This document shows, one piece after another, positions 7,637 through 64,000 of a DNA stretch of 64,000 nt (its first letter is position 1; the number at the start of each line of letters is the position of its first letter). The position numbers and the translations under genes were made by a program. This DNA is from a candidate division WOR-3 bacterium (GTDB taxonomy: Bacteria; Hydrothermota; UBA3072). The stretch is taken from NCBI GenBank assembly GCA_016930175.1, contig JAFGHJ010000023.1, forward strand, positions 17,053-81,052. Direction: 5' to 3'. The notes under the pieces were generated by a model. The model was not told the DNA's origin. It saw only the letters and a program-made list of their open reading frames with translations, and ran no database searches.

Positions 7637-7666
7637 AGTGAGAAGATTAGAAATAGAATAATTACG

Positions 7667-37478: not shown

Positions 37479-37506
37479 TTGACACTTACAAATGATTAAC
37501 TATATT
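37479..37506 (+). promoter_or_regulatory. Promoter of tRNA-Leu
   Basis: TTGACA-16 nt-TATATT. Confidence 0.7.
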
Positions 37507-40339: not shown

Positions 40340-41040
40340 CCTGTTATTCGGTAAAAAATAGGTTTGAAATTCTCTTTTTTAATTTCAGTTATGCAAGCGA
40401 GTTCATCGCCTTTCGTATATCCTGGATTGCTTCTTAGAAAATATTTAATGTGAGGATTGGTAAGTCTGTTCAAAGGAATAGTTGCATGTTTTACTTTTAA
40501 AAAATTTTTGTTCCGAGGGATAATTACACCTTTTTCCTTATTATAAGCTTTCCCGAACTTTTCATACGCTAATACATCTATTATTTTTTTCTCAAAAACG
40601 GGCGTTTCTCTATCATACCTTGGATAATAATCTTCAAATATCAATGGAAGAAATCTGTATGTTCTAAAACCCATTGATATAAGAAACCAGTAGAATTTTA
40701 CCCCTTTTTCCATATTATTGTATATATATCTCCCAAAATGCTTCATTAAATCTAATTCATTTCTGTAAGAACTGTCTACTATTGTATCACCGGAAAAAAC
40801 AGCTTTAATTTTTGTACCATCGACTGTAACTCTCATCGTTTTTAAAGTAGAAAATCCTTTTATTTTTTTTGTACCATTCGCAAAAAGAAGGATAATTTTT
40901 TCTTTTTCGTTAAGATCACTGAAGAAGGTTTTTTCTTCTACAACAAAGTATCTGGTAAATAGAGAGTACATCTGTTTTTTGTAATCTCCGGAAAGCTCTT
41001 TTATATCTATAATCCTGCCGGTTATTTTTTTATCTTTCAT
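40333..41040 (-). CDS. Hypothetical protein, probable GNAT/acyltransferase-like fold
   Basis: IKGFST..AVFSGDTIVDSSYR, YWFLISMGFRTYRFLP and NPGY..GDEL. The fold assignment is an inference. Confidence 0.55.
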   Translation of the reverse strand: MKDKKITGRIIDIKELSGDYKKQMYSLFTRYFVVEEKTFFSDLNEKEKIILLFANGTKKIKGFSTLKTMRVTVDGTKIKAVFSGDTIVDSSYRNELDLMKHFGRYIYNNMEKGVKFYWFLISMGFRTYRFLPLIFEDYYPRYDRETPVFEKKIIDVLAYEKFGKAYNKEKGVIIPRNKNFLKVKHATIPLNRLTNPHIKYFLRSNPGYTKGDELACITEIKKENFKPIFYRITGC

Positions 41041-43506: not shown

Positions 43507-44900
43507 TTTGACTCCAGGTTTATCTCGGAGATTATTTCCTTGGTGCATTTTGGCAGTTTCCAAGCGTAGTACTTATATCCCAAATTTAGTAATAAACCCA
43601 GCCAGTAAAGAGATCTTGTCCCGTTTAACCTGCCTAATACCGATTTGAGCTTGTATGTTTCTCTCCATGCCCAGTGCAGTCCTTCTTCGAGTTCTTCCGG
43701 TTTCATATTTTTCGGTTTATATACCACGTGCTCGACATCGTACATAGACCAGTCGTATTCTATTATCCTTTTTTCTTCTTCAAGTTTTTTGAATATAGGT
43801 GTGCCCGGATAGGGAGTAAAAACAGAATATCTCGGCAGGTCGATTTTTATCTTATCTATAAATTCTACAGTTCTTTCAAAAACGCCTTTGTCTTCGTGGT
43901 CTGTTCCGAAAAGGAAAGTTCCGTTAACCCGTATCCCATTGTCGTGGAGATTCCTTAAAAGATCCGAATACTTAGTTACTATTTTTGGATTCTTATGAAT
44001 TTCTTTTAGACTGTCGGGAGAAATCGTTTCAAATCCAATTAAAAGTCCTTTGCAGCCGCTTTCTGCAACTGCGTCAAGGATTTCTTTGTCGAACAGCGCG
44101 TTTGCGGTCGAAAGACCGAACCAGCTTTTTTTAAGCGGTTTTAAACCTTCCAAGAGTTCTTTCGAATATTCTTTATCTCCGAGTAGATGAACGTCAATGA
44201 ATACTACTTCGTTGCCGTCGAGGGTTTTTATTTCTTCGAGTATTTTTGATACGGGACGTTTAAAGTAATTCTTTCTCCACACATTAGGGACAGCGCAAAA
44301 ACTACAATTGCAGGGACATCCTCTTGTAGCCATCATTGAATTCAGAGTTATATAAGAATTCTTTTTTAATAAATCTCTTTTTGGTATAGGAATATTTTCG
44401 GTCGGGAAATTTCCCGGGTCTTCATAGATTCTTTTCATTTTATTTTGAGAAAAATCTCGAAGCAGTTCCGGAAAAACTCTTTCAGCAAAGCCGACAACGA
44501 CGCTGTCGGCATGGCTGAGAGCTTCCTCGGGCATAAGCGTCGGATGTACACCTCCGAGAACTACGGGAATCCCTTTTTGTCTATAATTATCGGCAATCGC
44601 GTAGGCTCTCGTAGAAGTTGCGGTCATAGCGCTGATCCCAACCAGGTCGGGATCAAAATTTAGTGAGCTTAAATTATCGGTTCCTTCGTCCAATATCTTA
44701 AGGTTAATATTAAGGTCTTTGGGTATTAGAGAAGCAAGATAGGTCAGAGTTAACGGGGCATACCTCAAGGACTTTTTAAATATGCCGGTCTTGGCTCTGT
44801 GTATTGCGCCCGCGGGCAGAATCAAAAGGAGGTTAAAACAATTGTTAGTAATTCGGGATTTTCGTTTTAACGAATCAATTTTATTCCTATACATTTTCAC
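43503..44900 (-). CDS. B12-binding domain radical SAM protein
   Basis: DLVGIS, VVLGGVHPT, TRGCPCNCSFC, GFET and TPYPGT motifs; AGGAGG RBS before GTG. Confidence 0.92.
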   Translation of the reverse strand: MKMYRNKIDSLKRKSRITNNCFNLLLILPAGAIHRAKTGIFKKSLRYAPLTLTYLASLIPKDLNINLKILDEGTDNLSSLNFDPDLVGISAMTATSTRAYAIADNYRQKGIPVVLGGVHPTLMPEEALSHADSVVVGFAERVFPELLRDFSQNKMKRIYEDPGNFPTENIPIPKRDLLKKNSYITLNSMMATRGCPCNCSFCAVPNVWRKNYFKRPVSKILEEIKTLDGNEVVFIDVHLLGDKEYSKELLEGLKPLKKSWFGLSTANALFDKEILDAVAESGCKGLLIGFETISPDSLKEIHKNPKIVTKYSDLLRNLHDNGIRVNGTFLFGTDHEDKGVFERTVEFIDKIKIDLPRYSVFTPYPGTPIFKKLEEEKRIIEYDWSMYDVEHVVYKPKNMKPEELEEGLHWAWRETYKLKSVLGRLNGTRSLYWLGLLLNLGYKYYAWKLPKCTKEIISEINLESK

Positions 44901-49768: not shown

Positions 49769-50021
49769 ACTCCCAAGCTATTAGCTGTTTGCCTTTAGCT
49801 GTTGGTTTAAAAAATATACAAATAAAAACTTTGTTTTCTCTGTGTGAAATTTAGCGAGTAGGTATAAGAGAGCAGTTAGCAGTAAAAAAACTTTGTGGGC
49901 TTTGTGTCTTTGTGTGAGACCAATTTGGGGTTGTGGGATGGTTTTTAAACAACAATATATTTTTTTCTCTGTGTATTTCTGTGTGCTCTGTGGTTTAATT
50001 GGTTCTTGGGGAAGGGGGTGG
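49769..50021. repeat. Intergenic repeat-module array (reverse-orientation relative of 27754-27950)
   Basis: 28-nt identity with 27923-27950 (reverse complement); CTTTGTG and CTCTGTG repeats, TTTTAAACAACAA and G-tracts. Confidence 0.85.
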
Positions 50022-50055
50022 TTGCCTTTTGCCGGGGTTTTCGTATAATTCCGGA

Positions 50056-50700
50056 ATGGACAATAAAACTATAGAAAAGGTTTTGAATATACTTAAAGAA
50101 AAATACGCCGAATGGAAGCCTCCCATTGTAACGGAGATAGCGAGTAAAACAGGTGACCCTTTCCGCGTGCTTATTTCGACTGTGCTCAGTTCCCGCACCA
50201 AAGACGCGGTTACAAGAGAAGCTTCCAGGAGGCTGCTTGAAAAGGCTTCAACGCCCCGGGAGGTAGCGAAGCTATCTCCGAGAGAAATAGAGAAATTAAT
50301 CTACCCCGTCGGGTTTTTCCGTACAAAAGCTAAGAGAATTCCTGAGCTGGTTCGTATTTTGATCGATGAATACGAAGGAAAGGTTCCTGATGAGCTGGAA
50401 GAATTGCTTAAACTTCCGGGCGTGGGAAGAAAAACCGCAAATCTGGTTTTGACTGTAGGTTTTGGTAAACCGGGTATATGCGTCGATACACATGTCCACC
50501 GTATATCCAACAGATTCGGGTATGTAAGGACGAAGAATCCCGCGGAAACAGAGTTCGCCCTGAGGGAGAAATTACCGGAAAAGTGGTGGATATCTTATAA
50601 TGATTTTCTGGTAACTCTGGGTCAAAACATCTGTTTTCCCAGGAATCCTCATTGCGGAGAATGTCCGCTGAATAAGCTTTGTGAAAAAGTAAATATTTAA
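50056..50700 (+). CDS. nth: Endonuclease III
   Basis: [11 protein letters not shown], Hh[18 protein letters not shown] and C-x6-C-x2-C-x5-C Fe-S motif. Start trimmed to ATG 50056. Confidence 0.95.
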
Positions 50701-50719
50701 GAGAAACGCATTCACGAAT

Positions 50720-50755
50720 AAAAAAACCCGCGGTAAATTTACCGCGGGTTTTTTT
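50720..50755. terminator. Bidirectional intrinsic terminator
   Basis: Perfect palindrome AAAAAAACCCGCGGTAAATTTACCGCGGGTTTTTTT between convergent genes. Confidence 0.9.
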
Positions 50756-50776
50756 AACAACTTAATCAAAAACTGC

Positions 50777-52393
50777 TTACTTCAGCAGCATTACCTTCTT
50801 AGTGGCTGATTCGTTGCCTGCTTTAAGATTGCAGAGGTAAACACCATTTGCGAGACCTGATACGTCCAGAGATACGGTGCTTCCATTAGCATCCGCAGCT
50901 TTAACCAGCTGTCCTGCTACATTGAAGAGACTCACTTTCGCTGCGATTCCAGCCGGAACGCTTACCGAAACAACTACGTTGCCGGTTGTTACTACCGGAG
51001 CAACTGAAAGTGCGATGTTAGCAGCAGCTGGCTCCGAAATTCCGCTGGTCACTGATAAAATTGCCGTTCCAAAGAGGCCCGGATCCTGCCAAGAGTTATT
51101 ATCGGCAGCCCACCATTTTGTCATGGCTTCACGAGTTGAGCCGTCGTTGTCTGCGATCTGGACTTCCCAGCCGATTACCTGACCTACCTCAAGCGGGAAC
51201 AACTGAGCCGGAGGATCACCCTTCACGAGCTCTGCAACAGGGATAGCCAATTCAAAGTTATAACCATCATCTGTTTTAAGCCATGCCCATTCACCCTTGT
51301 CAGCCCATCCTGACTGGATTTCGGTTTTACCCCAAACCCATCTCCACTGAATATCATTGGCGTCGTATGGGCTGGCTTTGCTGTTATCACCGTCGAAATA
51401 GAGCTCAAAGCAGTCATTGTTATGCGAATTCGCTGCGTCCCCTTCGCCCGTGACGGAGTCGTCCATCACTCTTCCGAAGAAGTAAATACCATCCGCATTC
51501 CAAGCGACACGATAGTATGAGCAAATATCCGAGTCGCCATTAAACATACCCGACTCGTTGATATAGCCGGACATCTTAACTTCAGGAACTTCGACATCCT
51601 CAACATCGACCCACTCGTCACCCAAATCTCCGTCGATTGTAGGAGCGAATTCGATTTGTGGTATCGGTAATACATTATCCTCGTTGGCAAGTTGAGCCGT
51701 TCCGAAGAGGCCCGGATCCTGCCAGGAGTTATTGTCGGCAGCCCACCATTTTGTCATGGCTTCACGAGGTCCGCCGTCGTTGTCGGCAACCTGGGTTTCC
51801 CATCCGATTGTAGTGCCTGCCGTAAGGTCAAACAACTGAACCGGAGGATCACCCTTCACGAGCTCTGCGACAGGAATTTCCAGCTCGAAGCTATAACCAT
51901 TAGTGGTTGTAGCCCATGCCCAGTTACCTTTGTCAGCCCATCCTGATGTTATCTCGGTTACGCCATAAACCCATCTCCACTGGATATCATTGGCATCGTA
52001 TGGAGCGGTTTTGCTGTTATCGCCGTCGAAATAGATTTCCCAGCAGTCGTTGTTGTGTGAATTGGCAGCGTCCGCTTCACCTGTTACGGAGTCGTCTGCA
52101 ACCTCTCCGTAGAAATAAATGCCGTCTTCGTTCCACGCGACCTTGTAGAATGAAGCGCAGTCAGCGTAACCATGGAATGAATCCGGCTGCTCTAAAATAT
52201 ATCCGTACATTTGAATATTGGGACAAGACAAAACCCAATCTTCGTCTATTTCGCCGTCGATTACAGGAGCAAATTCTACGTATGGGATGTTAAGAACATC
52301 ATTAACCGTGCTACCAGCATTCTGAGCTGAAAGTATAATACTAAAGCAAAAAAGCAACAAGAACATTTTTGATAAAATTGGAAGTCTATTCAC
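50777..52393 (-). CDS. Secreted tandem CBM9-like protein with T9SS C-terminal domain (paralog 2)
   Basis: Same architecture as 28045-29703, with long identical peptide stretches. Confidence 0.85.
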   Translation of the reverse strand: MNRLPILSKMFLLLFCFSIILSAQNAGSTVNDVLNIPYVEFAPVIDGEIDEDWVLSCPNIQMYGYILEQPDSFHGYADCASFYKVAWNEDGIYFYGEVADDSVTGEADAANSHNNDCWEIYFDGDNSKTAPYDANDIQWRWVYGVTEITSGWADKGNWAWATTTNGYSFELEIPVAELVKGDPPVQLFDLTAGTTIGWETQVADNDGGPREAMTKWWAADNNSWQDPGLFGTAQLANEDNVLPIPQIEFAPTIDGDLGDEWVDVEDVEVPEVKMSGYINESGMFNGDSDICSYYRVAWNADGIYFFGRVMDDSVTGEGDAANSHNNDCFELYFDGDNSKASPYDANDIQWRWVWGKTEIQSGWADKGEWAWLKTDDGYNFELAIPVAELVKGDPPAQLFPLEVGQVIGWEVQIADNDGSTREAMTKWWAADNNSWQDPGLFGTAILSVTSGISEPAAANIALSVAPVVTTGNVVVSVSVPAGIAAKVSLFNVAGQLVKAADANGSTVSLDVSGLANGVYLCNLKAGNESATKKVMLLK

Positions 52394-52633
52394 TTATTAA
52401 CCTCCTTACATTCTGATATTTTAATTTGCATTTAATTAAAAATTTTTATTAATCTATTATTATAAGATGGGTGATTTTCAGTGAAACGAACATAATAAAA
52501 TGTTCCGGCCTTCCCTCCTATCTTCCGAAAAAGAAGAAAAGGCCTTACCTGCAAATTTTTAATCGAACAGTTAAATGCATTATAGCACCCCCATTTTTTT
52601 GTTTGACTAAAAACTTCTTATGCTTAGGATAAC

Positions 52634-52813
52634 AATATAATGAAATAAAACACAATGTCAAGGGGTTTTTTTCTGAAACCAGGACGCATCTTTTGAGATC
52701 TAAAGGGCAGGAGAAGTTGTTGAATTGTTGCAATGAATTGGTTTTTTTGCTCCGGTGTTTCTTAAATATTTAAGAAATTTTACCCTTGACAAAAACACCT
52801 CTTTTGTTATACT
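52634..52813. promoter_or_regulatory. Divergent promoters with a 20-bp palindromic candidate operator
   Basis: Minus strand TTGACA(52661)-16-TATATT; plus strand TTGACA(52786)-16-TATACT; perfect palindrome TTTCTTAAATATTTAAGAAA at 52758-52777. Confidence 0.65.
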
Positions 52814-53047
52814 AATAACTGAAATTTGGTAGACTTCATGTAAGGCTAAAGATTATAATCCGGTAAGGTTAAGGAGTGGGTATATTTTAAGCTGTTTAGC
52901 CTGATATCTCAGGGGGGTTGTAATAAAATTGAGCTTTTCTAAAATAGAGTTAATATTTCAAAATTTGATAAGAGACGTTGTCAGGTGTTCCGTATTTCGG
53001 TCTTCAGTTTTAATCCAATTTGTAAACCCTAACGAAAGGAGGCTTTA

Positions 53048-56000
53048 ATGAAAAGTACGAGAAGGGGAAGAGAATTGTTGCCCAGGTGGATTATAGGAGG
53101 GGTGTTTGTTATTTTGTCTTTGCTTGCCTTTAATCCAAGCGTGAAAGCGGCAGTTACAGGAAAAATTGCGGGTGTTGTAGTTGATGCGGAAACAGGTGAG
53201 CCTTTACCCGGAGCTAATGTTTTGATAGAGGGTACTACTTTGGGAGCTGCAGCCAATCCGGACGGATATTTTTTCATTATAAGAGTATCCCCCGGTATCT
53301 ATGATGTCCAGGCGAGGATGATGGGATTTGAGAGTGTGACTATGACCGGTGTTGAGGTGACTACCGATCACACGACTCAGGTTAGATTTGAACTGAAATC
53401 CACGGTTGTCCCGGGCGAAGGTGTTACCGTAAAAGCGGAGGCGGAGGTTATAAAAATGGACCTTTCATCTTCCGCTATTTCTGCTAAAAGCGATGATATA
53501 GAAGCTGTTCCGTTTGTTGACGAGGTCGGGGATTATATTAACAGACAGGCTGGGGTTCAGGGTTGGCAAATAAGGGGAGGAGGTTTAGATCAGGTAAGTT
53601 TTATGACAGATGGTTTAAACCTTGTGGATGGCAGAACGAATAATCCAGCTCTTATGCCCCCCTTGAGTATGATAAAAGAGCTCAACGTAATCAAGGGCGG
53701 TTTTGCTCCCGAGTATGGCAATCTAAGGTCGGGCTTGGTAAACATTGTGACCAGAGAACCTTCTAATGTCTATAATGGTTCGATTAATTTTCGTTACAGT
53801 CCCGCTTATTTGAAACACCGTGGACCTACTGTTTATGATACGTCGCATTATTGGGTAGGAGCTTTCGTTTTAGAAAAAGACAGCCTTTGCTGGATAGGAG
53901 CAAGAGGTCTTACGACAAAAGCGAGGGATGCTTATCGCGCAGGAGATTCCGTTTTAGGCGATTACTATACCGACCTTAAAACCAGCTATTTTCCATTTGA
54001 TAACGGTTGGCTTGGAGCAGCCGGCGGAGATCCCGATAGCGCGGCGAAATTGCGCGATAAATTTATCTGGTCGCACCGTCTCCAGGGGGCGGATGAGTTG
54101 TTGCCGGATGGTTCCCCTTATGATGGTGAGCCGAGAGTCGCGACGTATGGCGATAAACCTGACTTTAACGTAGATGCTGGTTTTGGAGGACCTGTTCCCG
54201 TAATCGGTGGTTTTTTAGGAGATTTAGGTTTTTATGCAGCTTACAGACAGAATAAAGAAGCTTTTGCTCTTCCGACAAGCAGAGATTATTATGGAGAACA
54301 GAATGCAATGGTGAAGCTGGTCTCCCATCTTACGCAGTCGATAAAAGTTAGCTTTGATCTGATGTACGGGGAGCAGAACACTGTTTCTGCGAGTTCGAAC
54401 GGAGAGCTGGGTGCGGAGGACAATCCGTATGGTCTTTATTTAAACCCGGGTGACCTCGGTCCTCAGTTTGTCGATTTTGTCCAGGGTACGGGTTATGTCA
54501 GCGGAGCGGGTGGAATTTATGTGTCAGGTGGGAGCGATGTATTCAGGAGTCAGCTGACATCGAAACACGCGGTATATTATCCTGCTTTTATTCCAGTATA
54601 TGATATTTCTCACAATATGCAGGGTTTTACCTTTGACCACGCGTTAAGTGAGAAAACTTTCTATACCGTCAGGATTTCTCATTTGGGAAACGAGAGACTT
54701 TGCAGCGCTTATGAAACATTCGATGAGAGAGATACTACAATATATACGTTGACGAGCGGCGCAGAGGTTACTGAAATTCCTTATGGATATTATTTAGAAG
54801 CTGCTGATGTACAGATAAATGGTGTCTACATGGGAGCGCATTGTGCGGGTGCTGTCGATTCCTCGGTATCTCATACCTGGGATTTTAAAGTTGATTTAAC
54901 GAGTCAAATTAACGCATACAATGAAGTAAAGATAGGAATTGAATATAATTATGCTGATATGAATACGTACTATGAGAAAAACAGATGGGAGTCTCCGCAC
55001 GAAAATTGGGTTGTCGATTGGGAAGCCAGTCCCATTAGAGGAGGCGCCTATATACAGGATAAAATCGAATTTGAAGGTATTATAGCGACAGTAGGATTAA
55101 GAGCTGATTGGAATGACCCTAATTTAGAATGGTTCGAGCTGGAAGATGATCCTTATGATTATTACTTTACAAGGGTGGGTAAGAGTTTGTTGCTCACCGA
55201 AGCTGAAACTCATCCGGCGCAGGGTCATTTGAAAATAGCTCCTCGTTTCGGAATATCTCATCCTATATCAGAGAATGCCAAATTATATTTCAATTACGGG
55301 GATTTTTATTCCCTTCCGGCTTCTTATAATTTGTATCAGATATTCTGGGGTCCGGCACGATATGGTGTAAGGTATTTTGGTAATCCGGAGCTCGACTGGC
55401 CTCTTACAAGAGCTTACGAGTTAGGTACCGACTGGGGTATTGCGGATATGTTCCGTATTCACCTTGCCGGTTACTATAAAGATATTACCAATCAGCCTGT
55501 GGCTGTGGAGTATATAGGTTACGATGATTCTCCGCACTACAAGGTGCCTGAAAGCTCAAACTACGAGGATATTCGTGGTATAGATTTCAGAATCAGTAAA
55601 GACTATGGGAACTGGATAAGAGGCTGGCTGAATTACGACTACAGGGTAAGGAGTTATGGCCAGACGGGTAAGAGTATACGCTACCAGAGCTTACTTCAGG
55701 ACGCGACGCTCGGTGCGTGGGACACTTTAGAGTATACTCCCCGCGCTCAGCCGATATTAGAAGCCAATATTCAATTTTTGACTCCTGAGGATTTAGGTCT
55801 ATTACTTGGTAACATTTCACTTAGTCTTAACTACTCCTGGGAAGCAGGTAGCTATTTGACCTTTGACCCATTGAAAAGAGAAATAGGGGATCCCACAAGA
55901 CCATATTTAAATATGCAGTGGAAACCCTGGAGGAATATCCAGGCAAGAATCCAGAAGGGAATAAATGTTGCCGGAATAAATCTCAGCATATTTGCAGAGG

Positions 56001-56260
56001 TAGATAATCTTTTCGATTGGAAATATTTAGATACGGGATCCGGCAGCTTTGTTAATCAAGACGACGAAGATAAATATTATGCCTCGTTGAGGTTACCCAT
56101 CTATGAGGATCCGGAGTATGAAAACTATGGAGAGCCCGGAGATGATCAGTTTGGTGATTTCAATAGTGAAGATAAGCCACATATTGACGATCCGGCGTTA
56201 ACGCATCTTGCCTTCCATCACCCTCGATTTTTCGTTTTTGGAGTGAAAGTTGATTTTTAG
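53048..56260 (+). CDS. Large TonB-dependent receptor with N-terminal carboxypeptidase-regulatory-like domain
   Basis: TGKIAGVVVDAETGEPLPGANV, IRGG..DG plug, GGFAPEYGN..SGLVNIVT, PRFGISHPI and terminal VDF. Confidence 0.9.
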   Translation: MKSTRRGRELLPRWIIGGVFVILSLLAFNPSVKAAVTGKIAGVVVDAETGEPLPGANVLIEGTTLGAAANPDGYFFIIRVSPGIYDVQARMMGFESVTMTGVEVTTDHTTQVRFELKSTVVPGEGVTVKAEAEVIKMDLSSSAISAKSDDIEAVPFVDEVGDYINRQAGVQGWQIRGGGLDQVSFMTDGLNLVDGRTNNPALMPPLSMIKELNVIKGGFAPEYGNLRSGLVNIVTREPSNVYNGSINFRYSPAYLKHRGPTVYDTSHYWVGAFVLEKDSLCWIGARGLTTKARDAYRAGDSVLGDYYTDLKTSYFPFDNGWLGAAGGDPDSAAKLRDKFIWSHRLQGADELLPDGSPYDGEPRVATYGDKPDFNVDAGFGGPVPVIGGFLGDLGFYAAYRQNKEAFALPTSRDYYGEQNAMVKLVSHLTQSIKVSFDLMYGEQNTVSASSNGELGAEDNPYGLYLNPGDLGPQFVDFVQGTGYVSGAGGIYVSGGSDVFRSQLTSKHAVYYPAFIPVYDISHNMQGFTFDHALSEKTFYTVRISHLGNERLCSAYETFDERDTTIYTLTSGAEVTEIPYGYYLEAADVQINGVYMGAHCAGAVDSSVSHTWDFKVDLTSQINAYNEVKIGIEYNYADMNTYYEKNRWESPHENWVVDWEASPIRGGAYIQDKIEFEGIIATVGLRADWNDPNLEWFELEDDPYDYYFTRVGKSLLLTEAETHPAQGHLKIAPRFGISHPISENAKLYFNYGDFYSLPASYNLYQIFWGPARYGVRYFGNPELDWPLTRAYELGTDWGIADMFRIHLAGYYKDITNQPVAVEYIGYDDSPHYKVPESSNYEDIRGIDFRISKDYGNWIRGWLNYDYRVRSYGQTGKSIRYQSLLQDATLGAWDTLEYTPRAQPILEANIQFLTPEDLGLLLGNISLSLNYSWEAGSYLTFDPLKREIGDPTRPYLNMQWKPWRNIQARIQKGINVAGINLSIFAEVDNLFDWKYLDTGSGSFVNQDDEDKYYASLRLPIYEDPEYENYGEPGDDQFGDFNSEDKPHIDDPALTHLAFHHPRFFVFGVKVDF

Positions 56261-56290
56261 TATCAACCAAGAGGTAAGGAGGAAATAATA

Positions 56291-58741
56291 ATGAAGAAGT
56301 TTACTTGTTTAATTCTAATATTTGTCTTTGCCACTTTACTTATCTCGTTCCCTGTTTTGGGTGATGAGAAGTGGATTCGTGAATCAGAAATTCAGCCGAG
56401 AATTACTGATGCTGCCGATCAAAGCGAGATAAGCTTTGGTAATTTTGAAGCGACCTGGTATTTTGATGGCGCTGCCCCTGAGGGTGGGTCGCCGGCTGAC
56501 GGCTGGATACGCAGTTGGATTAGAAATTCGGGTTCCAGATGGGGCTGCAGAAATTGGTATGATCCTGTGGGCGACTCTATCATGCCCATCAGATTGGGAG
56601 GCGCTCCTTACGGTACACCAGATTTGAGTACTGTTCAGTTTGCAGTTCCGGATTCGGTTGGTATAACAATTAAAATGTATTACAGATACGACCCGCCGTC
56701 TGTTATTGTCGACGGGCTTCATCTTGAAAGAGATTTCCCGCGAATAGGCGATTATTACGCTCCTGATAAGGTGTGGGGAACTGCCGATGTTATGGTGGAA
56801 TCCCACGCGAGGAACTGGCTGGGGCTGGATATTTATCAGAAAGTGCTGAGCTGGGTTTCCAAAAACCATAGCCAGTATGTCATATATGACTGGACAGTTG
56901 TAAATACGGGGAATGTTGATTTGGACGATTCAATCGAACGAGAAGGTTACGAGCTGGACAGTTTATACTTTATGAGACAGCTTGAAATGACGGTAAACAA
57001 TCAAACAGAGACGAAATCAGAATGGTATTCGTGGTGTGGAGTTTATCCTGATTGGGACGAACCGAGGGATTCTGTGCGTTGTTTAATCTCTTATTCGGCT
57101 CTTGAATTCGATAGGGCTGGATATTCTCCATGGGGAGATGCTCTCGGTTGTTACGTTCAGGACCGTGATTATTTAGATGATGCGGCGTCAGGTTGTGAGG
57201 CTATGCTCTATGTTCCTCAAGTCGATGCCGAAGAGAAGCCGCTGAAGCCTATGGGTCCCGGCGCTGATGCCGTTAATGGGAATCCCTCAAATTATCCGGA
57301 AACCGATGACCCGGTTCAGCCAAAAGCTCATGGTATCAGGGGTCCAGACGATGGCGAATTTAAAACGCATTCGGGAAATCACCCCCCGACAGGCGAAAAT
57401 AGTTGGGAGACAGTGTATAATTCCATGATATACGGAGAAAAAGGAGATCCCGAGTATGATCCTTATGTGGAGTATATGACCGGAACTTACCCGGGAACCT
57501 ATCATCCTGTGCCCTCTGATATGAGAGGTTATGAGAAATGGAACGACCTGAACAAAAATGGAAGAATCTTCTGGCATGCTGTGGGCAACGCGAGCATGGG
57601 TCCCTTCCATCTGGACTATGGAGATTCTCTCAGAATAGTGTGGGCGGATTGCGGAGGTCGTCTCGATGTAAGCAGTATGTTGGAACTTGGCAGGGCGTGG
57701 AAGGACAGCTCAATAACATTCGTCACACAGAGCGGCGACACGCTCGATATAGATGATATAAGTCTGACAGCTCCGCACCTGCCAAACCAGGCAGATACGA
57801 TTCATATACCTCCTGTGTACAGAAATAATCCCTGGCGCTGGCAGGATGATGGCAATTGGTCCGATCGTGCCAATCTGATTAAGGATATGTGGGTTTATTC
57901 CACTGTGGATTCTGCCATAAGACATGCGATTAACGCTCAGTGGAACTTCGATCACAATTATGATATACCTGTTCCCCCGCCGCCGCCATCGATCGAGATT
58001 ACTTCCGGAGCCGATCAAATAGTAATTCGCTGGTTCTATGAGCAGGCGGCTGATGAATCATCTGCACCTGACCTTGCAGGATACAAGGTGTATCGTTCTA
58101 CAGGAACTGCGGGCGTAGGTCCTCTGGCTGAAAATACCGGAGTGATAGGTAATTGGGAGTTAATCTTCCAGTGCGGCGGTTCCGATCCGGGAGGCGGTGT
58201 TGATTATAGCGCTTCCGTAGTTGATACGTATAATGATACCGATGCGGTTCGCGGCGAAGATTACTATTACTATGTGGCAGCGTTTGATGACGGGTCCCAT
58301 CCGGAAGCGGAGGATCCGAACGGAGTTACTGGTACGCCTGAGGTGCTAGAGAGCGGAAGGTGGCAGAACTATACTTACGGTGTAGTAGGAGCCGCTTCTT
58401 TAAAAAGACCAACCGGGACTTCATTATCTCAAATTAGAGTAGTTCCAAATCCCTATAATGCTGCTTCAAAGTATATGCAGTACGAAGGGGGATCGGAGAA
58501 GATAAACTTCTTTAATTTACCCGGCAGCTGTACAATCAGAATTTACACCTTTACAGGCGATTTGGTAAAGACCATTGTTCATGACGATGGTTCGGGAGAT
58601 GAAGCCTGGGATGATCCTACAGGAAAACAATATCAGGTGACAGATGATATTCGACATGTTGTAAGCGGTCTCTATATTGCAAATATCGTTGATGATGAAA
58701 CTGGCGAGAGTATAAACATTAAGTTCGTCATAATAAGGTAG
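56291..58741 (+). CDS. Large secreted protein of unknown function with FN3-like and T9SS C-terminal domains
   Basis: Signal peptide; PPPPPS..I.W..GYKVYRS..YYYYVAAFD (FN3-like); IRVVPNPY..F.NLP..CTIRIYT..GDLVKTI..W..SGLY..K..IIR. Confidence 0.75.
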   Translation: MKKFTCLILIFVFATLLISFPVLGDEKWIRESEIQPRITDAADQSEISFGNFEATWYFDGAAPEGGSPADGWIRSWIRNSGSRWGCRNWYDPVGDSIMPIRLGGAPYGTPDLSTVQFAVPDSVGITIKMYYRYDPPSVIVDGLHLERDFPRIGDYYAPDKVWGTADVMVESHARNWLGLDIYQKVLSWVSKNHSQYVIYDWTVVNTGNVDLDDSIEREGYELDSLYFMRQLEMTVNNQTETKSEWYSWCGVYPDWDEPRDSVRCLISYSALEFDRAGYSPWGDALGCYVQDRDYLDDAASGCEAMLYVPQVDAEEKPLKPMGPGADAVNGNPSNYPETDDPVQPKAHGIRGPDDGEFKTHSGNHPPTGENSWETVYNSMIYGEKGDPEYDPYVEYMTGTYPGTYHPVPSDMRGYEKWNDLNKNGRIFWHAVGNASMGPFHLDYGDSLRIVWADCGGRLDVSSMLELGRAWKDSSITFVTQSGDTLDIDDISLTAPHLPNQADTIHIPPVYRNNPWRWQDDGNWSDRANLIKDMWVYSTVDSAIRHAINAQWNFDHNYDIPVPPPPPSIEITSGADQIVIRWFYEQAADESSAPDLAGYKVYRSTGTAGVGPLAENTGVIGNWELIFQCGGSDPGGGVDYSASVVDTYNDTDAVRGEDYYYYVAAFDDGSHPEAEDPNGVTGTPEVLESGRWQNYTYGVVGAASLKRPTGTSLSQIRVVPNPYNAASKYMQYEGGSEKINFFNLPGSCTIRIYTFTGDLVKTIVHDDGSGDEAWDDPTGKQYQVTDDIRHVVSGLYIANIVDDETGESINIKFVIIR

Positions 58742-58749
58742 GAGGGAAG

Positions 58750-59778
58750 ATGAGAAAGCTTATTATAATATTACTTCATTTAATGCTTTTAATCCCCGGT
58801 TACTCTTTATATGGACAAGAAGAAATAATTGAAGGGGGAAAGAAAATAGGTGCGGCAGGGTTCAAATTTATGGATATTGCAATCGGTGCCAGAGCCGCTG
58901 GGATGGGGGAAGCGTTTGCGTTTATCGGAGATGATGCCGAAGCTATTTTCTATAACCCCGCGGGTATAGCTCAGATGGATGATAAGAATTTTGATTTGAC
59001 TGTCTGTAAAGTTGACTGGATTGTCGAAACCTCCATAAATGCTGTTGGCCTGGTTGCTAATCTTGGTACTTTTGGTAACGTAGGTTTTAGTTTGCTTTAC
59101 ACGGATTATGGGGATGTCATAGGTACAGTCGTTGAGCCCGACTCGGCGAGCGGATATAGAGAGACAGGACTGCTGGAGCTTGGTTCTTACGCGACAGGCG
59201 TTTCATACGCCCGGAAGTTGACCGATAAGTTTATGATCGGCGCCAACTTCAGATACTCATACGAGCACTTGGGGGACAACTTGTTTGCAAACAATGCCGC
59301 GAGGGATTCTATCTGGACTGAAAAAAATGAGACTCAAACGATTGCCTATGATATAGGGACTATTTTTTATCCGGGTTTTGAAAGCTTTAGACTCGGAATG
59401 TCCATTGTTAATTTCTCTACTGCTGTGCAGTATGAGTATGAAGAAGGCAGGACCAATTCGTTCAATTTGCCTTTGACCTTTAAGATGGGAGCGGCTATGG
59501 ATATTCTTGACCTTCTTGGAGAACATCCTCATCATTCTCTCTTGGTAGATTTCGAACTCGTTCATCCGCGTGATTATTCCCAGAGGTATCATCTTGGAGG
59601 AGAGTTAAGTATATTGGAAGTAATTAAACTGAGAGCGGGTTATAAGTTTGGATACGACGAGGAAGGATTGGCTTTTGGCGCCGGTATTAATACTGCTAAT
59701 GTTAAACTGGATTACGCGTATAGCGAATTCGGAATTTTTGATTTTGTGAACAGGGTTTCACTCGGTCTTTCGTTCTGA
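58750..59778 (+). CDS. PorV/PorQ-family outer membrane beta-barrel
   Basis: F..I.IGARAAGMGEAF..DDAEAIFYNPAG, LRAGY and DYAY motifs, terminal F. Confidence 0.87.
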   Translation: MRKLIIILLHLMLLIPGYSLYGQEEIIEGGKKIGAAGFKFMDIAIGARAAGMGEAFAFIGDDAEAIFYNPAGIAQMDDKNFDLTVCKVDWIVETSINAVGLVANLGTFGNVGFSLLYTDYGDVIGTVVEPDSASGYRETGLLELGSYATGVSYARKLTDKFMIGANFRYSYEHLGDNLFANNAARDSIWTEKNETQTIAYDIGTIFYPGFESFRLGMSIVNFSTAVQYEYEEGRTNSFNLPLTFKMGAAMDILDLLGEHPHHSLLVDFELVHPRDYSQRYHLGGELSILEVIKLRAGYKFGYDEEGLAFGAGINTANVKLDYAYSEFGIFDFVNRVSLGLSF

Positions 59779-59993
59779 GGAGTTAAGAGAAAGCAGAAAA
59801 TACCGAAAACAGAGGAAGCAATCAGTGGAATTCAAGTTTTGCTGATCGCTTTCTCTGTTTTTATACGGGGCTTGCCTTTTTTCTTTCATTAAATATACTT
59901 TAAAGGTATTTTTCTTATCTTCTGAAGAAGGGGAATTGATTTGATAAGAAGGAAGAGGATAAAACAAAAGTAATGGAAAATAGGGGAGGTGAA

Positions 59994-61154
59994 ATGAAGT
60001 CGTTCTTATCGGGATTTTTGTTCATTTTAACTGCAATTTTATTGATAGACGGATGTGCCGGGAAAAGTGCAAATTATAAATACTTCCGTAAAGTTGATAT
60101 CGATGGGAGGTATTCTATTATAGGAAAGTATCCGCTGAGTCCTGAAATGGGAAATAAGGGAGAAGCGTATCGCTTTTTGTATAATAAGAAGGGAGAACTT
60201 ATAAGAGTAGATTACCTTATGGGAGGAAAACTCAGAGACGGGTCTTTTTTTGGAAATAATGTTGCACAGGTTTTAATCGAACATTTTGAAACATATGAGA
60301 AAAGGGCGTATTTTGACGTGAATGGTTTGTCTGTTAGAGATAGATATGGTGTTTATTCCATACGATTGGAATTGAACGATAATAATCTCCCAACTTCCAA
60401 GTTGAATTGCGGCGTGTTTGGTGAATTTACGGAAGATATTTATGGTGTAGTGCAGTACTTGTGGACCCTTGACGGCGAAGGACGGATAAAAAAAGCCATT
60501 TTCTATGATTTTTTGGGGAAAAGATTAACAATCGAAGAAGGTGGATTTGAAACAGCTTTTAAATATGACGAAGACGGCAATATGATTGAAAGAAGTTATT
60601 TCGATTCTAAGGGAAATCTAAAAGAAAACAAGGATGGCGTTGCTGTATTGCGTCAGAAATTTGATGATAAAGGAAATATAATCGAAATAAGACAATTCGA
60701 TGCTGCGAATAAATTAATAGAGTTAGGGAACGGAGTTGCCGTTACAAATCAGAAGTTTGATGAAGATGGGAATATTGTTGAAACCAGATATTTGGGGAAA
60801 GATGAGAAGCTGAAAGAGAACAATATGGGTGTTGCCATTATGCGGTGCAGGTTCGATGCTTACGGAAATATAGTGGAACAGAAATATTATGATATGTCAG
60901 ATAAGCTTACAGAGGGCAAATTTTATGGATTCGCGACAAGGCAATGGGAATATGATGAAGACGGAAAATTGTTAGAAACCAGGTTTTTAGATGTTAACGG
61001 GAATTTGAAAAACACTATAAACGAAGAAGCTGCAATTTTGCGTATGAAATACGATAAAGATGGTAATCTTGAACAAATTTTACATCTTGATAAAGAGGGT
61101 AACCCGGTGGAGGATTCTTTGTTAAGCGTTCCCTTAAAAACCACCACCAAATAG
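59994..61154 (+). CDS. Lipoprotein with YD-like beta-hairpin repeats
   Basis: Lipobox IDGC; about six 32-33-aa repeats (Y/F)D..GN..E..Y.D..G.L. Start MKSF follows GGAGGT; the ORF track gives 59973. Confidence 0.7.
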   Translation: MKSFLSGFLFILTAILLIDGCAGKSANYKYFRKVDIDGRYSIIGKYPLSPEMGNKGEAYRFLYNKKGELIRVDYLMGGKLRDGSFFGNNVAQVLIEHFETYEKRAYFDVNGLSVRDRYGVYSIRLELNDNNLPTSKLNCGVFGEFTEDIYGVVQYLWTLDGEGRIKKAIFYDFLGKRLTIEEGGFETAFKYDEDGNMIERSYFDSKGNLKENKDGVAVLRQKFDDKGNIIEIRQFDAANKLIELGNGVAVTNQKFDEDGNIVETRYLGKDEKLKENNMGVAIMRCRFDAYGNIVEQKYYDMSDKLTEGKFYGFATRQWEYDEDGKLLETRFLDVNGNLKNTINEEAAILRMKYDKDGNLEQILHLDKEGNPVEDSLLSVPLKTTTK

Positions 61155-61250
61155 TAACCACAAGATTAACACAGAATTTTCATTGTATTTTTTAAATAAA
61201 ACTTAAAAGAGTGATGGGTTTTAGTATGTTTTGTGTGTTTCGTGGTTTAA
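61155..61250. repeat. Short inverted copy of the intergenic family between convergent genes
   Basis: AACCACAAGATTAACACAGAA ... GTTTTGTGTGTTTCGTGGTT. Confidence 0.65.
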
Positions 61251-62459
61251 TAAACTTCCCAGCCTTTTCATTATTTCAAGACAGGCTCTTGTGTTGTGAT
61301 ATGGAGCTTTCCATGGACCCAATTTATCTTCTTCGGATAGATAAGGTTCGCCTTTTCTATTTACCCTGAAGAACCATTCTCCGTTTTCCCTGTCGATAAT
61401 GTGGTTTTTTACAAAATTCCAGCAGTTGTAAGAAGCATCAAGGAATTTTTCGTCGTTCGATATTTGAAAGGCGTTCAGGAATCCGACCATCGCTTCTGCC
61501 TGGGGCCACCAGTGTTTATCCGTATCTGTTACTGCATCTCTTTTCCCCTCGTTCATCAAAGCTCCGTCGGAATCTATCCCTTCCTTTAGCACAATATTTA
61601 CTGTTTGCAGAGAAGACTTCTTAACTTTTTCGAGCAGGTCTTCGCGATTTAGAATCTCGGCAGCTTCGCACAACAGCCAGCTCCCTTCTATATCGTGTCC
61701 ATATGAAAAAAGATTGGATTTTAAATTCCAGAACTCATCGAAGAATAAATTAAAATGTCCGGTTTTAGGTTCGATTATTTTATCGAGAAATATGTTAATC
61801 AATAGTTCTAATTGTTTTTCTAATTTCTTATTCTTCCATATATTGAGGAGATTTGCATATCCTTCGAGTACGTGTAAATGTGTATTCATAGTTTTCTTTT
61901 CGTTCTGGTCTTTATCACTCAATCGGACATCTCCGGTAGGTTCCCATTCCCTATCGCATGCTTCAAAATAGCCGGTATATTCAGGGTCGAAACTGTATTT
62001 TTCAATTAATTCGAAAAGCTCGATTGCCCATTTAAGAGTGTCTTGATTACCGGAAATTTTGTAGTATTCAACCAGAGCGTAGATGCAGAAAGCCTGCGCA
62101 TAAATTTGTTTTTTATCGTTGATCGGATTACCTTTACAATCGAGCATCCAGTAAATACCGCCTTTTTCGCGGTCGCGGAAATGTTCTTTTATGTATTCAT
62201 AGGCACGTTTGGCTAAGTTTAGATATTTTTCTTCTTTAAATTTACTGTATATGATTGAGTATGTCCAGAGTATTCGTGTGTTCAGTACAGCCGATTTGGG
62301 GGAATCTTTAATTTTTTTTCCGTCATTTAAAATTCTTCCTAAAAATCCCCCGTTCTCTTCGTCGACTGTTTTATCCCAGAATGGAAGGATGTTATTTTTT
62401 AGTTCGTTTTCTATTTCTTTATAATAGTTATCTGCATTCATGAAATGCCTATTTAACAT
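61221..62459 (-). CDS. Cellobiose 2-epimerase / N-acylglucosamine 2-epimerase (AGE) family
   Basis: NILPFW, N.RILWTYS, KQIYAQAF, KTMNTHLHVLE, SYGHDIEGSWLL, WWPQAE and WKAPYHN.R motifs. The start may be 62441. Confidence 0.92.
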   Translation of the reverse strand: MLNRHFMNADNYYKEIENELKNNILPFWDKTVDEENGGFLGRILNDGKKIKDSPKSAVLNTRILWTYSIIYSKFKEEKYLNLAKRAYEYIKEHFRDREKGGIYWMLDCKGNPINDKKQIYAQAFCIYALVEYYKISGNQDTLKWAIELFELIEKYSFDPEYTGYFEACDREWEPTGDVRLSDKDQNEKKTMNTHLHVLEGYANLLNIWKNKKLEKQLELLINIFLDKIIEPKTGHFNLFFDEFWNLKSNLFSYGHDIEGSWLLCEAAEILNREDLLEKVKKSSLQTVNIVLKEGIDSDGALMNEGKRDAVTDTDKHWWPQAEAMVGFLNAFQISNDEKFLDASYNCWNFVKNHIIDRENGEWFFRVNRKGEPYLSEEDKLGPWKAPYHNTRACLEIMKRLGSLLNHETHKTY

Positions 62460-62549
62460 AATTTAATTAAGGCTTTTTTTGGAATTTGTCAAGCTTATTT
62501 TTATTGACAAAAGAGGGTTTTATTTTAATATTCAATCAGGGGGTGAATT

Positions 62550-63422
62550 ATGGCATCTGATAAAAAAACGAAGGGAAGTACGAAAGGTATACCCGTTTTG
62601 CACGTGGAAGGCGACTGTATAGCTCGTGCCTGGGAGAATTCTCTTATCTCGCTTTACGAGAATGGATGCGATATCAAGACTCAATATGATAAACCAAACG
62701 ATCCTCCAAGTAAAGATGCAACGATGATTATTACGGTCGCAGATCCTCTAAAAGAGCCGATGCTTCATAAGGATTTTCCCGCAGGTATTGAATTTCTGCA
62801 GGAGTATGTGATGGAGGTTTGCGAAGGGATTAAGGATCATCTTGTACGCGATACTGGTGACCCGGAGGATACACGCTGGGAATATACATATCATCAGAGG
62901 CTGTTTGCATATGAGGCGCCGGGTGTAAAACCTTTGAACCAGATTGAAATTATGTGCCAGAAGCTAAACGACAAGCCTTATACGAGGAGAGCCCAGGCTA
63001 TTACCTGGAAAGTGTGGGAAGATAACGACTGTTACGACCCCGCGTGCCTTCAAAGTCTCTGGTGCCGTATTACAGAGGAAGACGGTGAATCTTTCCTGAA
63101 TATGAACGTCCGTTTCCGCTCGAATGACGCCTACAAGGCTGCATTTATGAACATATTTGCGCTTGTCCAGTTGCAAGCTAAAATCGCGAAAAGAATTTCG
63201 GAGATTTCAAATAAGGATATTAAAATTGGGCGATACTGTCATTTTGCTGACAGCTATCACCTTTACGGTTCTTATTTTGAAGAATTCAAGGGGCGTTTCT
63301 TGGGGGCTCTCGAGAAGCGTACTTTCGAAGGACGTACGATGCGTTATGAAGATTTTCGCGAGATGATGGAAGCCGCCCGCCCGTCGATTCTTGAACGGGT
63401 AAAGAATATGGAGAGAGAGTGA
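62550..63422 (+). CDS. thyA: Thymidylate synthase (divergent, archaeal-like ThyA)
   Basis: YTY..RL, TRRAQAITW, catalytic PACLQ, RSND..N and H..DSYHLY motifs. Confidence 0.8.
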   Translation: MASDKKTKGSTKGIPVLHVEGDCIARAWENSLISLYENGCDIKTQYDKPNDPPSKDATMIITVADPLKEPMLHKDFPAGIEFLQEYVMEVCEGIKDHLVRDTGDPEDTRWEYTYHQRLFAYEAPGVKPLNQIEIMCQKLNDKPYTRRAQAITWKVWEDNDCYDPACLQSLWCRITEEDGESFLNMNVRFRSNDAYKAAFMNIFALVQLQAKIAKRISEISNKDIKIGRYCHFADSYHLYGSYFEEFKGRFLGALEKRTFEGRTMRYEDFREMMEAARPSILERVKNMERE

Positions 63423-63465
63423 GTTGAGTCGGGAATTAAAGGTTGATCGTGGAAAGAAGTTAAAA

Positions 63466-63568
63466 CATTAGTGTTATTTGTGTAATTTGTTGTTTCTGAT
63501 TTTGGGGTGATGGGTTGAGTTTTAAATAAACGAAATAATTTAGTGTATTTAGCGTGTTTCGTGGTTAA
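63466..63568. repeat. Intergenic repeat-module array
   Basis: TTAGTGTTATTTGTGTAATTTGTTGTT (inverse of the module at 21890-21917), a G-tract, and TTAGTGTATTTAGCGTGTTTCGTGGTT. Confidence 0.75.
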
Positions 63569-63618
63569 TAATGGAACCGATACGTATTTAACAGGGTCTT
63601 ATTTGAAAAGGAGGATAA

Positions 63619-64000
63619 ATGACAAAGAAGTGTATTTTTATTATATTATTACTTTTGGTTTTTGCCGTTTTTTCAGGATGTAGCCGAAAACCCGCCCGCG
63701 AGTATATTTCTAGAGCACCATTCAAACATCCGCATATAGGAGATAGCGCTTCCAGATTTGACCATTGCAGAATAGATAGAATGGCTGATGATTTAGGATT
63801 ATCCGCGGAGCAGCTTGAGGAGTTGAGAAATTTGGAGATGGAGATAACAAAAAAGCGTCTTGAGATGAGGCGGGACAGAAAACGCAGAGAGGACGTTAAA
63901 GTAAAAATTATCGAGATGGTGAAAGAAGACTCATTATCGAAAGAAGAAATTTTGAGCTTTATGGATGAGTTACATTCTTTGGGAGAAGAGAATAGGAAGG
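63619..64000 (+). CDS. Lipoprotein with Spy/CpxP-like helical domain (partial, runs off the window)
   Basis: Not in the ORF track. AGGAGG RBS; MTKKCIFIILLLLVFAVFSGC lipobox; LGLSAEQLEELRNL resembles the LTxxQ motif. Confidence 0.7.
   Translation, partial: MTKKCIFIILLLLVFAVFSGCSRKPAREYISRAPFKHPHIGDSASRFDHCRIDRMADDLGLSAEQLEELRNLEMEITKKRLEMRRDRKRREDVKVKIIEMVKEDSLSKEEILSFMDELHSLGEENRK

Follow-up and report, generated by a model that had tools for sequence, protein, structure and literature searches.

The 64,000-nucleotide stretch of contig JAFGHJ010000023.1 analysed here (the window) comes from a candidate division WOR-3 bacterium and carries three adjacent genes on its plus strand. They encode a TonB-dependent transporter of 1070 aa, a secreted protein of 816 aa (the partner) with a type IX secretion system (T9SS) C-terminal domain (CTD), and an outer membrane barrel of the PorV/PorQ family. 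This triad is a conserved unit. We read it as a TonB-dependent importer whose partner is exported by the T9SS and tethered by a barrel of its own. The class of head domain found here probably captures oligosaccharides for it, and we give this reading a probability of roughly 0.55. The analysis shows the gene content and close linkage, the conservation and duplication of the triad, the predicted folds, the distinct CTD subtype and the glycan genes around same-head triads; that tethering is stable, that partner and transporter cooperate, that the head binds sugar and which substrate is taken up are inferred.

The host genome is a 2.34-Mb assembly of 48 contigs, 94.3% complete, in which the window triad lies on contig C30. 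Searching it with tblastn recovered the trio in the same order five times: on C30, on C21, twice in tandem on C3 (C3a and C3b), and on C11. For the second C3 copy, the transporter gene is found on C39, beyond a contig break. In the window, transporter and partner genes are 30 bases apart and partner and barrel genes 8 bases; in the other three complete copies (C21, C3a and C11) the spacing ranges from a 23-base overlap in the open reading frame (ORF) calls to 28 bases. Pairwise identities gave the same grouping, ((C3a,C3b),C11),(C30,C21), for transporter, partner and barrel. Therefore, the trio duplicates as a block. Two of the five copies sit in clusters of glycoside hydrolase (GH) and sugar transporter genes. 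Apart from these copies, a lone distant transporter was found on C24 (30% identity) and a lone partner paralogue, outside any triad, on C29.

Twelve related loci were found in public genomes. The whole trio was present in eight of them, and in a ninth (L004) the transporter was cut by a contig end. These nine include a locus at 35–45% identity (L011) and one from an Ignavibacteriaceae metagenome-assembled genome (MAG) at 25–36% (L012). Another two were cut by contig ends with two of the three genes visible, and the last (L010) held the partner only. Within the phylum, a partner profile matched 78 of 81 genomes at E ≤ 1e-10. Full-length matches were confined to the genus of the window (5/5 genomes, 2–6 matches each) and one other genome. 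Elsewhere in the phylum the profile matched only the C-terminal module (helix, FN3 and CTD) in proteins of about 600–800 aa, and in proteins of about 950–1100 aa with other heads the CTD alone. Eighteen phylum loci from different families were fetched from these matches. Transporter, partner and PorV-family barrel stood on one strand in 17 of the 18. Two of the 17 triads had an extra ORF inside the trio, and two were ordered transporter, barrel, small ORF, partner. In a representative library of 1.84 billion proteins, 665 proteins matched the partner profile at E ≤ 1e-30. The conservation that the earlier note on this DNA had proposed as a check was thus found within the genome, in related loci and across the phylum. 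That the three genes are independent outer membrane genes in chance synteny, with no functional meaning in their adjacency, is very improbable in view of the five paralogous copies with concordant divergence, the recurrence in 17 of the 18 sampled phylum loci and the distant Ignavibacteriaceae locus.

As a separate observation, in phylum relatives (L033–L037) the triad is recurrently followed, directly downstream, by a gene for a large CTD protein (about 800–1260 aa) and then one for a TPR protein of 306–341 aa. These pairs may be further surface components of those loci.

The 1070-aa protein is a TonB-dependent transporter. Its signal peptide is followed by a CarboxypepD_reg extension (residues 40–128), a GEGVTV.A stretch (about residues 122–130), a plug and a barrel ending in F. 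The conserved stretch between extension and plug is a candidate TonB box. The plug model PF07715 scored 28.1 bits (cut-off 23.9), and OMP_b-brl_3 matched as well. The predicted structure had a predicted local distance difference test score (pLDDT) of 82.5. In Foldseek it matched PhuR (8the_A, E = 9.5e-23) and also PirA and FusA (5fr8_A, 4zgv_A), and the SusC/RagA chains ranked lower (5fq6_B, 9.9e-19; 6sml_B, 2.8e-18). The SusC/RagA model TIGR04056 gave 39.4 bits against a cut-off of 368.25, with the N-terminal extension alone aligning. A sequence search of solved structures returned only a carboxypeptidase D domain (E = 0.0099). Relatives of the transporter are named 'TonB-dependent receptor' at NCBI, and contig C10 carries a TonB-ExbD-ExbD-ExbB cluster (TonB_C, two ExbD, one ExbB). 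In the transporter model, about 75 residues form a helical insertion that separates the plug from the first strand of the barrel (residues 271–343; 53858–54076), and there is also a 32-residue loop of low confidence (residues 456–487; 54413–54508).

The model of the partner (pLDDT 79.3; predicted template modelling score 0.82) consisted of a beta-rich head (residues ~25–560), a long helix (525–554), an FN3-like domain (567–666) and a C-terminal beta-sandwich (716–816). The sequence matched no Pfam or NCBIfam family at E ≤ 0.01. Foldseek with the whole model returned FN3 and CTD matches only, plus weak GH-type matches with TM-scores below 0.2. The fold of the head was assigned by exhaustive VIA structural search. 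It resembles the N-terminal supersandwich of GH15, GH65, GH94 and GH116 enzymes (Z 15.5–17.0, 236–278 aligned residues and a root-mean-square deviation (rmsd) of 3.2–3.9, given as ranges). The matches include a bacterial glucoamylase (1lf6_A; Z 17.0, rmsd 3.2, 237 aligned), glucodextranase (1ulv_A; Z 16.9, rmsd 3.2, 236 aligned), GH65 (7fe3_A; Z 16.1, rmsd 3.2, 247 aligned), GH94 (4zle_A; Z 15.9, rmsd 3.5, 257 aligned) and GH116 (7w2t_A; Z 15.5, rmsd 3.7, 278 aligned). Beyond residue ~560 the model holds just the helix, FN3 and CTD, with no (alpha/alpha)6 or TIM-barrel catalytic domain. Membership of GH15, GH65, GH94 or GH116 requires a catalytic (alpha/alpha)6 domain after the supersandwich, and this is missing from the model. 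A known hydrolase was ruled out by the lack of both a family match and a catalytic domain, and the earlier description of the 816-aa protein as an unknown secreted protein stands. The Atlas offered unnamed proteins as structural look-alikes of the head; they come from Fidelibacterota, Zixiibacteriota, Gemmatimonadota, Bacteroidota, Calditrichota, Ignavibacteriota and WOR-3.

The same structural data bear on a rival view, in which the partner acts as an enzyme at the cell surface and belongs to an unrecognised family (hydrolase, lyase or epimerase-like). It would cleave polymer there and the transporter would import the products, which makes it comparable to SusG rather than SusD, with tethering by the barrel still holding. 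Aldose 1-epimerases, which are among the structural matches (3mwx_A, Z 11.7; 3os7_A, Z 11.2), use the supersandwich itself for catalysis. Moreover, the head contains invariant charged residues (D166, R174, H193, D210, D212, E216, R263, D283) and is swollen by insertions to about 530 residues. The missing catalytic domain and the missing enzyme family match speak against an enzyme. In addition, the head is the fastest-diverging part among paralogues, and this is no less compatible with varied ligand recognition than with catalysis. We therefore consider an enzyme unlikely.

The tail of the partner was compared with other T9SS tails. The type A CTD models PF18962 and TIGR04183 did not match it at E ≤ 0.01. 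Residues 710–816 of the model superpose on the CTD of PorZ (5m11_A; Z 11.2, rmsd 2.5, 88 aligned, 24% identity). By its predicted structure the tail has the T9SS CTD fold, so that the CTD claimed by the earlier note is seen in the model, though no sequence model matches it. The genome also encodes about 68 ordinary type A CTDs over the model cut-off. A CTD-only profile was built from the partner family, so that its top scores arise partly by construction, and applied to 9924 six-frame ORFs. It gave 19 matches, namely the five triad partners (108–154 bits), the C29 paralogue (42 bits) and 13 others at 18 bits or less. Nonetheless, in the phylum search it was this tail that the 950–1100-aa partners with other heads matched. 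From these scores the partner CTD is a distinct subtype at the level of sequence. Among 78 listed partner homologues, six bear precomputed CTD-family matches (PF18962, PF13860 or PF13585). On rescanning, P0027, P0030, P0031, P0032, P0038 and P0081 each hit a generic tail model (E ≤ 0.01), and four of the six exceeded a curated cut-off.

Two proteins combine a partner-like head with a different tail. For the C29 paralogue (C29:46791–49127; L018:6789–9095, minus strand), which stands outside any triad, identity to the C11 partner is 68% over the head, 57% over helix and FN3, and only 20% over the tail. This tail is of the ordinary Por_Secre_tail kind (29.2 bits). The L010 protein matches the window partner at 68% identity over residues 1–753 and ends in a tail of the FlgD_ig/CHU_C type (41.9 bits); no transporter or barrel gene adjoins it. 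Among the distant triad paralogues, identities were 26–36% in the head, 43–53% in the CTD and 46–57% in the barrel. Judged by these identities, the anchor end is held constant and the head diversifies. The C29 paralogue adjoins genes for a 1293-aa protein without annotation and an 877-aa FecR/FN3 protein.

The barrel passed the PorV/PorQ family model NF033709 (172.2 bits against 90; 172.1 in the genome search). It fell below the cut-offs of the models for PorV (NF033710, 64.4 against 250), PorQ (NF033711, 59.9 against 220), PorV2 (NF052325, 51.7 against 325) and PorP/SprF (20.4 against 90.55). Docking was tested by co-folding barrel residues 23–342 (16-row alignment) with tail residues 700–816 (31-row alignment). 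The three runs scored 0.93, 0.93 and 0.92, agreed in at least 85% of contacts and had a partner pLDDT of at least 79, and the best of three controls scored 0.01. The mark applied to these scores is reached by 116 of 157 solved complexes and by 2 of 215 mismatched pairs. Docking of the partner CTD on the adjacent barrel, which the earlier note had proposed for its dedicated PorV paralogue, is thus predicted and supported by these models. A general PorV is encoded on C10 (PorV_fam 196.9 bits, PF19572 73.3 bits) and presumably serves the ~68 ordinary CTD proteins. Further T9SS components were found in a SprA-like ORF (209.9 bits summed, cut-off 200) and PorU (NF033707, 462.9 bits, cut-off 420).

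A review (PMC10202324) describes retained CTDs and cognate barrels: the CTD of PorZ is retained and binds PorQ, the CTD of PorU stays on PorV, and the cognate PorP/SprF barrels on which type B CTD cargo depends are encoded by adjacent genes. PorV is described there as a shuttle. The triad barrel could likewise be a private shuttle only, which takes its cargo from the SprA translocon before PorU cleaves the CTD, the partner then being freed or lipid-linked, with no lasting complex and no physical unit with the transporter. PorU and the SprA-like protein needed for such a route are encoded in the genome, and a docking prediction does not separate transient from stable binding. However, the genome already has a general PorV with a higher score, and head relatives outside triads carry ordinary CTDs. 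Every duplication has preserved one barrel for each partner, and the CTD has changed less than the head; for a mere shuttle this would be costly. We regard a shuttle without lasting tethering as improbable.

Three further observations concern the secretion machinery. In the window, PorU (Peptidase_C25; 30242–33943, minus strand) has a second tandem-CBM9 CTD protein alongside (28045–29703, plus strand), on the same contig as the triad. The SprA-like ORF (1812 aa in the ORF call; L021, 8674–14112) adjoins a secretin gene on the same contig, upstream of the window. Another cargo-barrel pair was found on C47 (91960–97314; L020:5961–11314). It consists of a 213-aa CTD protein and a 454-aa PorV-family protein (PorV_fam 123.3 bits, with a CHU_C-like stretch), followed by a 1109-aa TPR protein and ExbB.

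The gene neighbourhoods of triads with the same head class point to carbohydrates in several cases. The C21 triad lies next to GH31 with PA14, GH2 and GH13, and the C11 triad next to GH2, two MFS_2 sugar transporters, GH43, GH10 and a PfkB kinase. In the public genomes, neighbours were LacI, three sulfatases and WbsX (L011), GH88, UxaC, LacI and KDPG aldolase (L012), and an MGH1-like GH, an SSF symporter and GHL10 (L039). Triads with other heads (L022–L037) were surveyed in part, with 30 ORFs annotated and then 75 of the 136 remaining flanking ORFs of at least 150 aa. The annotated ORFs included ordinary CTD proteins, peptidases of families C11, S8 and S49, a PorU-like C25 protein and TonB/ExbB genes. 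It may be that head type sets the substrate class, and the pattern of gene context fits this, although the counts are small and come from related genomes. The alternative polysaccharide utilization locus (PUL) proposed by the earlier note thus holds in part. Same-head triads do lie among GH, sulfatase and sugar-transport genes; the locus is not a Bacteroidota PUL, its relatives being WOR-3 genomes, and other-head triads stand beside peptidase and TonB genes. A link to beta-mannan, also raised there, found no local support and was dropped. No GH26 gene was found in the genome. GH130 (three genes) and GH5 (four genes) do occur, either on different contigs or some 28 kb away from a triad.

Several findings weigh against our reading. 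On the side of the substrate, the window has no GH gene in its 64 kb, only the CBM9 proteins and an epimerase of non-strict synteny, and both C3 triads lack sugar genes nearby. The other-head loci showed no GH among their annotated ORFs, and therefore the module as a whole is not glycan-specific. On the side of the head, a supersandwich fold by itself is no proof of sugar binding; the match list includes the YidC periplasmic domain (3blc_A, Z 11.0), and with its many invariant acidic and polar residues the head could also be catalytic. Structures related to PorV-type barrel/CTD complexes have reportedly been solved, and the docking score may reflect likeness to such known pairs. It gives no preference for the adjacent barrel over the housekeeping PorV on C10. 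GldM was not matched in the genome, nor in any control genome, and GldK reached 72.9 bits against a cut-off of 350. Finally, in the eighteenth phylum locus (L038; 7052–9193, plus strand) a lone partner with the special CTD is flanked by restriction-modification genes, with no transporter or barrel nearby. This may be a rearranged locus.

The points on substrate would also be met if the window copy imported no glycan at all. It might take up peptides, a cofactor or a lipid-linked compound, for example, and the nearby CBM9 and epimerase genes would then reflect only synteny among close relatives. Besides the lack of GH genes in the window and of sugar genes near the C3 triads, one orthologous locus lacks the epimerase and another has just a fragment of it, and the other-head triads adjoin peptidases and TonB genes. 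Against this stand the same-head triads C21, C11, L011, L012 and L039, which are embedded in sugar-catabolic clusters, the two CBM9 modules encoded by the divergent gene, and a head fold typical of carbohydrate-active enzymes (CAZymes). A substrate other than glycan is, on balance, not likely for the window copy. Two metatranscriptome runs from a study of the likely source sample contained next to none of the sampled sequence words.

We also asked where SusD stands in this lineage. The closest named relatives are candidate division WOR-3 MAGs (partner 65% identical, transporter 62% and 44%); remoter named relatives at 38–42% belong to Calditrichota, KSB1 and Marinimicrobia. SusD_RagB (PF07980) had no match in the whole genome at its 94.3% completeness. 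It was also found in 0 of 81 sampled phylum genomes, in a search that used PF07980 as its only SusD-like Pfam model, and the control Bacteroides thetaiotaomicron was matched. Therefore, 'SusD-less' describes the lineage rather than the locus, and by these profile searches the absence of SusD is a trait of the lineage. The earlier statement that the locus has no SusD is confirmed in this wider sense. The adjacent SusC-like and SusD-like genes of a canonical PUL are not present at the locus. A Bacteroidota PUL that had lost its SusD was ruled out by taxonomy and by the phylum count.

Put together, the preferred reading of an importer with a tethered surface partner would work as follows. The three genes, co-transcribed, would build one outer membrane uptake unit in a SusD-less, WOR-3-like bacterium, with the 1070-aa protein as the TonB-energised importer. 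The partner would be exported by Sec and then by the type IX components, of which SprA, PorU and PorV are present. Its special CTD would escape cleavage and remain docked at the extracellular side of the barrel, whose gene lies 8 bases downstream, and would so tether the supersandwich head and its FN3 spacer at the surface beside the transporter. There the head would bind an oligosaccharide, with head type setting the substrate class, and hand it to the transporter; a direct contact as a lid, as put forward by the earlier note, is hypothetical. This role would match that of SusD or of surface glycan-binding lipoproteins in Bacteroidota. The divergently encoded tandem-CBM9 CTD protein would act as an accessory polymer-binding protein.

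A broader proposal is put forward more tentatively, and we rate it as somewhat less than an even chance. In the phyla around Bacteroidota that lack SusD, an uncleaved special CTD in a private PorV-family barrel would serve as a permanent anchor beside a TonB-dependent transporter. Exchangeable heads would set the substrate class, the supersandwich for glycans and others in peptidase loci, giving a general, modular and lipoprotein-free 'utilisome'. A swap to an ordinary CTD would free the head.

The features of the locus are listed in Table 1. Coordinates are positions in the window, and the ORFs were found exactly where the earlier note had placed them. Its gene assignments were reproduced for the divergent CBM9 protein, the receptor, the 816-aa protein, the barrel, the lipoprotein and the epimerase-like gene.

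Table 1. Features of the triad locus and its flanking genes in the window
Feature	Position	Strand	Basis
Terminator-like site near the end of the CBM9 gene	50789–50772	-	Consensus match only
Secreted tandem-CBM9 protein, 538 aa	50777–52393	-	CBM9 x2 (PF06452, 164.8 bits) and type A CTD (TIGR04183, 42.2 bits)
Divergent control region, 654 bases, AT-rich (GC 0.36)	52394–53047	.	Spacer between CBM9 gene and transporter gene
Promoter-like site, 11/12 positions	52661–52634	-	Consensus match only
Promoter-like site, 11/12 positions	52786–52813	+	Consensus match only
TonB-dependent transporter, 1070 aa	53048–56260	+	CarboxypepD_reg, Plug, OMP_b-brl_3
Secreted partner, 816 aa, Sec signal peptide, no lipobox	56291–58741	+	No Pfam/NCBIfam family at E ≤ 0.01
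Partner head, galactose-mutarotase-like supersandwich with insertions (residues ~25–560)	56363–57970	+	Predicted structure
Partner FN3-like domain (residues ~567–666)	57989–58288	+	Predicted structure; long helix 525–554 before it
Partner specialised CTD (residues ~705–816), RVVPNP ... KFVIIR	58403–58738	+	Predicted structure, tail profile
PorV/PorQ-family outer membrane barrel, 342 aa	58750–59778	+	NF033709, 172.2 bits (cut-off 90)
Terminator-like hairpin 3' of the barrel gene and triad	59853–59870	+	Consensus match only
YD-repeat lipoprotein, 393 aa, lipobox	59973–61154	+	YD repeats
AGE-superfamily epimerase, 412 aa	61221–62459	-	GlcNAc_2-epim (PF07221), 145.2 bits (cut-off 23.4)

The two promoter-like sites in the spacer point in opposite directions, and the plus-strand site would imply a 5' leader of about 230 bases for the transporter gene; both are consensus matches only. 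An Rfam search of positions 50000–64000 found no family. The 538-aa protein has no catalytic domain and, from its modules, is a candidate accessory glycan-binding surface protein. In orthologous loci it is kept but diverges fast, with 44–81% identity compared with 71–95% for the triad proteins. Synteny of the YD-repeat lipoprotein is confined to orthologous loci, and the genome encodes no paralogue of it. The epimerase scored 370.9 bits against the cellobiose 2-epimerase model NF041848, under its equivalog cut-off of 800. It was placed in the AGE superfamily by PF07221, as the earlier note had suggested, and is cellobiose-2-epimerase-like. As a fixed member of the locus it did not hold up. Triad and lipoprotein are retained in orthologous loci L002 and L004, and the epimerase is absent from the former and cut in the latter to a fragment (6687–6974) matching 96 residues. 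The links of both lipoprotein and epimerase to the triad are uncertain.

Two other parts of the window were noted. On the minus strand at 37500–44900 lie genes for three proteins of the radical-SAM type, two of which have B12-binding domains. They are clustered with genes for two family-less proteins and for a GH3-family protein of the acyl-adenylate type (PF03321, no glycoside hydrolase). This cluster is possibly involved in small-molecule biosynthesis. On the plus strand at 6347–9469, a gene for a 600-aa TonB-dependent receptor directly follows thiC, and this adjacency suggests uptake of thiamine or a precursor.

SusC/SusD is the standard marker of outer membrane glycan uptake. Genome surveys that count such pairs therefore come up empty for WOR-3, Ignavibacteriota, Calditrichota, the Marinimicrobia/Fidelibacterota group and related lineages, which occur commonly in sediments and the ocean. 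If our reading is correct, the triad offers a marker for substrate-uptake loci in these SusD-less phyla. The T9SS would also gain a second role, the building of importers, beyond the secretion of enzymes and adhesins. The exchange of heads and tails provides a testable rule for turning a secreted protein into a permanent surface subunit.

The literature was searched for a precedent. In CC-licensed PubMed Central papers and bioRxiv, no description of an operon of transporter, CTD protein and PorV-like barrel was found. Where the Caldithrix abyssi genome paper (PMC5317091) deals with TonB-dependent proteins, PUL, SusD or Por secretion, the triad module goes unmentioned. Transporters with a surface partner and CTDs retained on PorV-like barrels are both known; the triad joins these two principles in a way that was not found described in the literature searched. 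New here are the shorter, supersandwich-headed class of partner, its link to sugar loci and the cases of tail swapping.

In comparison with SusC/SusD and RagA/RagB, the triad shares a long transporter with a CarboxypepD_reg-type extension before the plug. As in SusC/SusD, the transporter gene is directly followed by the gene for a surface-exposed partner, many paralogues occur per genome, and copies lie in clusters of CAZymes and sugar transporters. SusD is a helical TPR-like lipoprotein. The partner, in contrast, is beta-rich, composed of supersandwich, FN3 and CTD, and carries no lipobox but a Sec signal peptide and a T9SS tail. A third gene, for a PorV-family barrel, is obligatory in the triad, and the transporter fold is no nearer to SusC than to siderophore receptors. 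TonB-dependent sugar loci without SusD also occur in Proteobacteria. In the CUT loci of Xanthomonas, the transporter is accompanied by glycoside hydrolases and inner-membrane sugar transporters; to our knowledge, they have neither a dedicated surface partner nor a PorV-family barrel. The anchor end of the triad resembles PorZ-PorQ, PorU-PorV and the pairs of type B CTD cargo with PorP/SprF, in that a CTD would be kept on a PorV-like barrel and cargo and barrel are encoded side by side (PMC10202324). The triad barrel differs from PorV, PorQ and PorP/SprF in scoring under all their cut-offs. Unlike PorZ-PorQ and PorU-PorV, the triad pair is not secretion machinery, but stands in a nutrient-uptake operon behind a transporter and has been multiplied five-fold.

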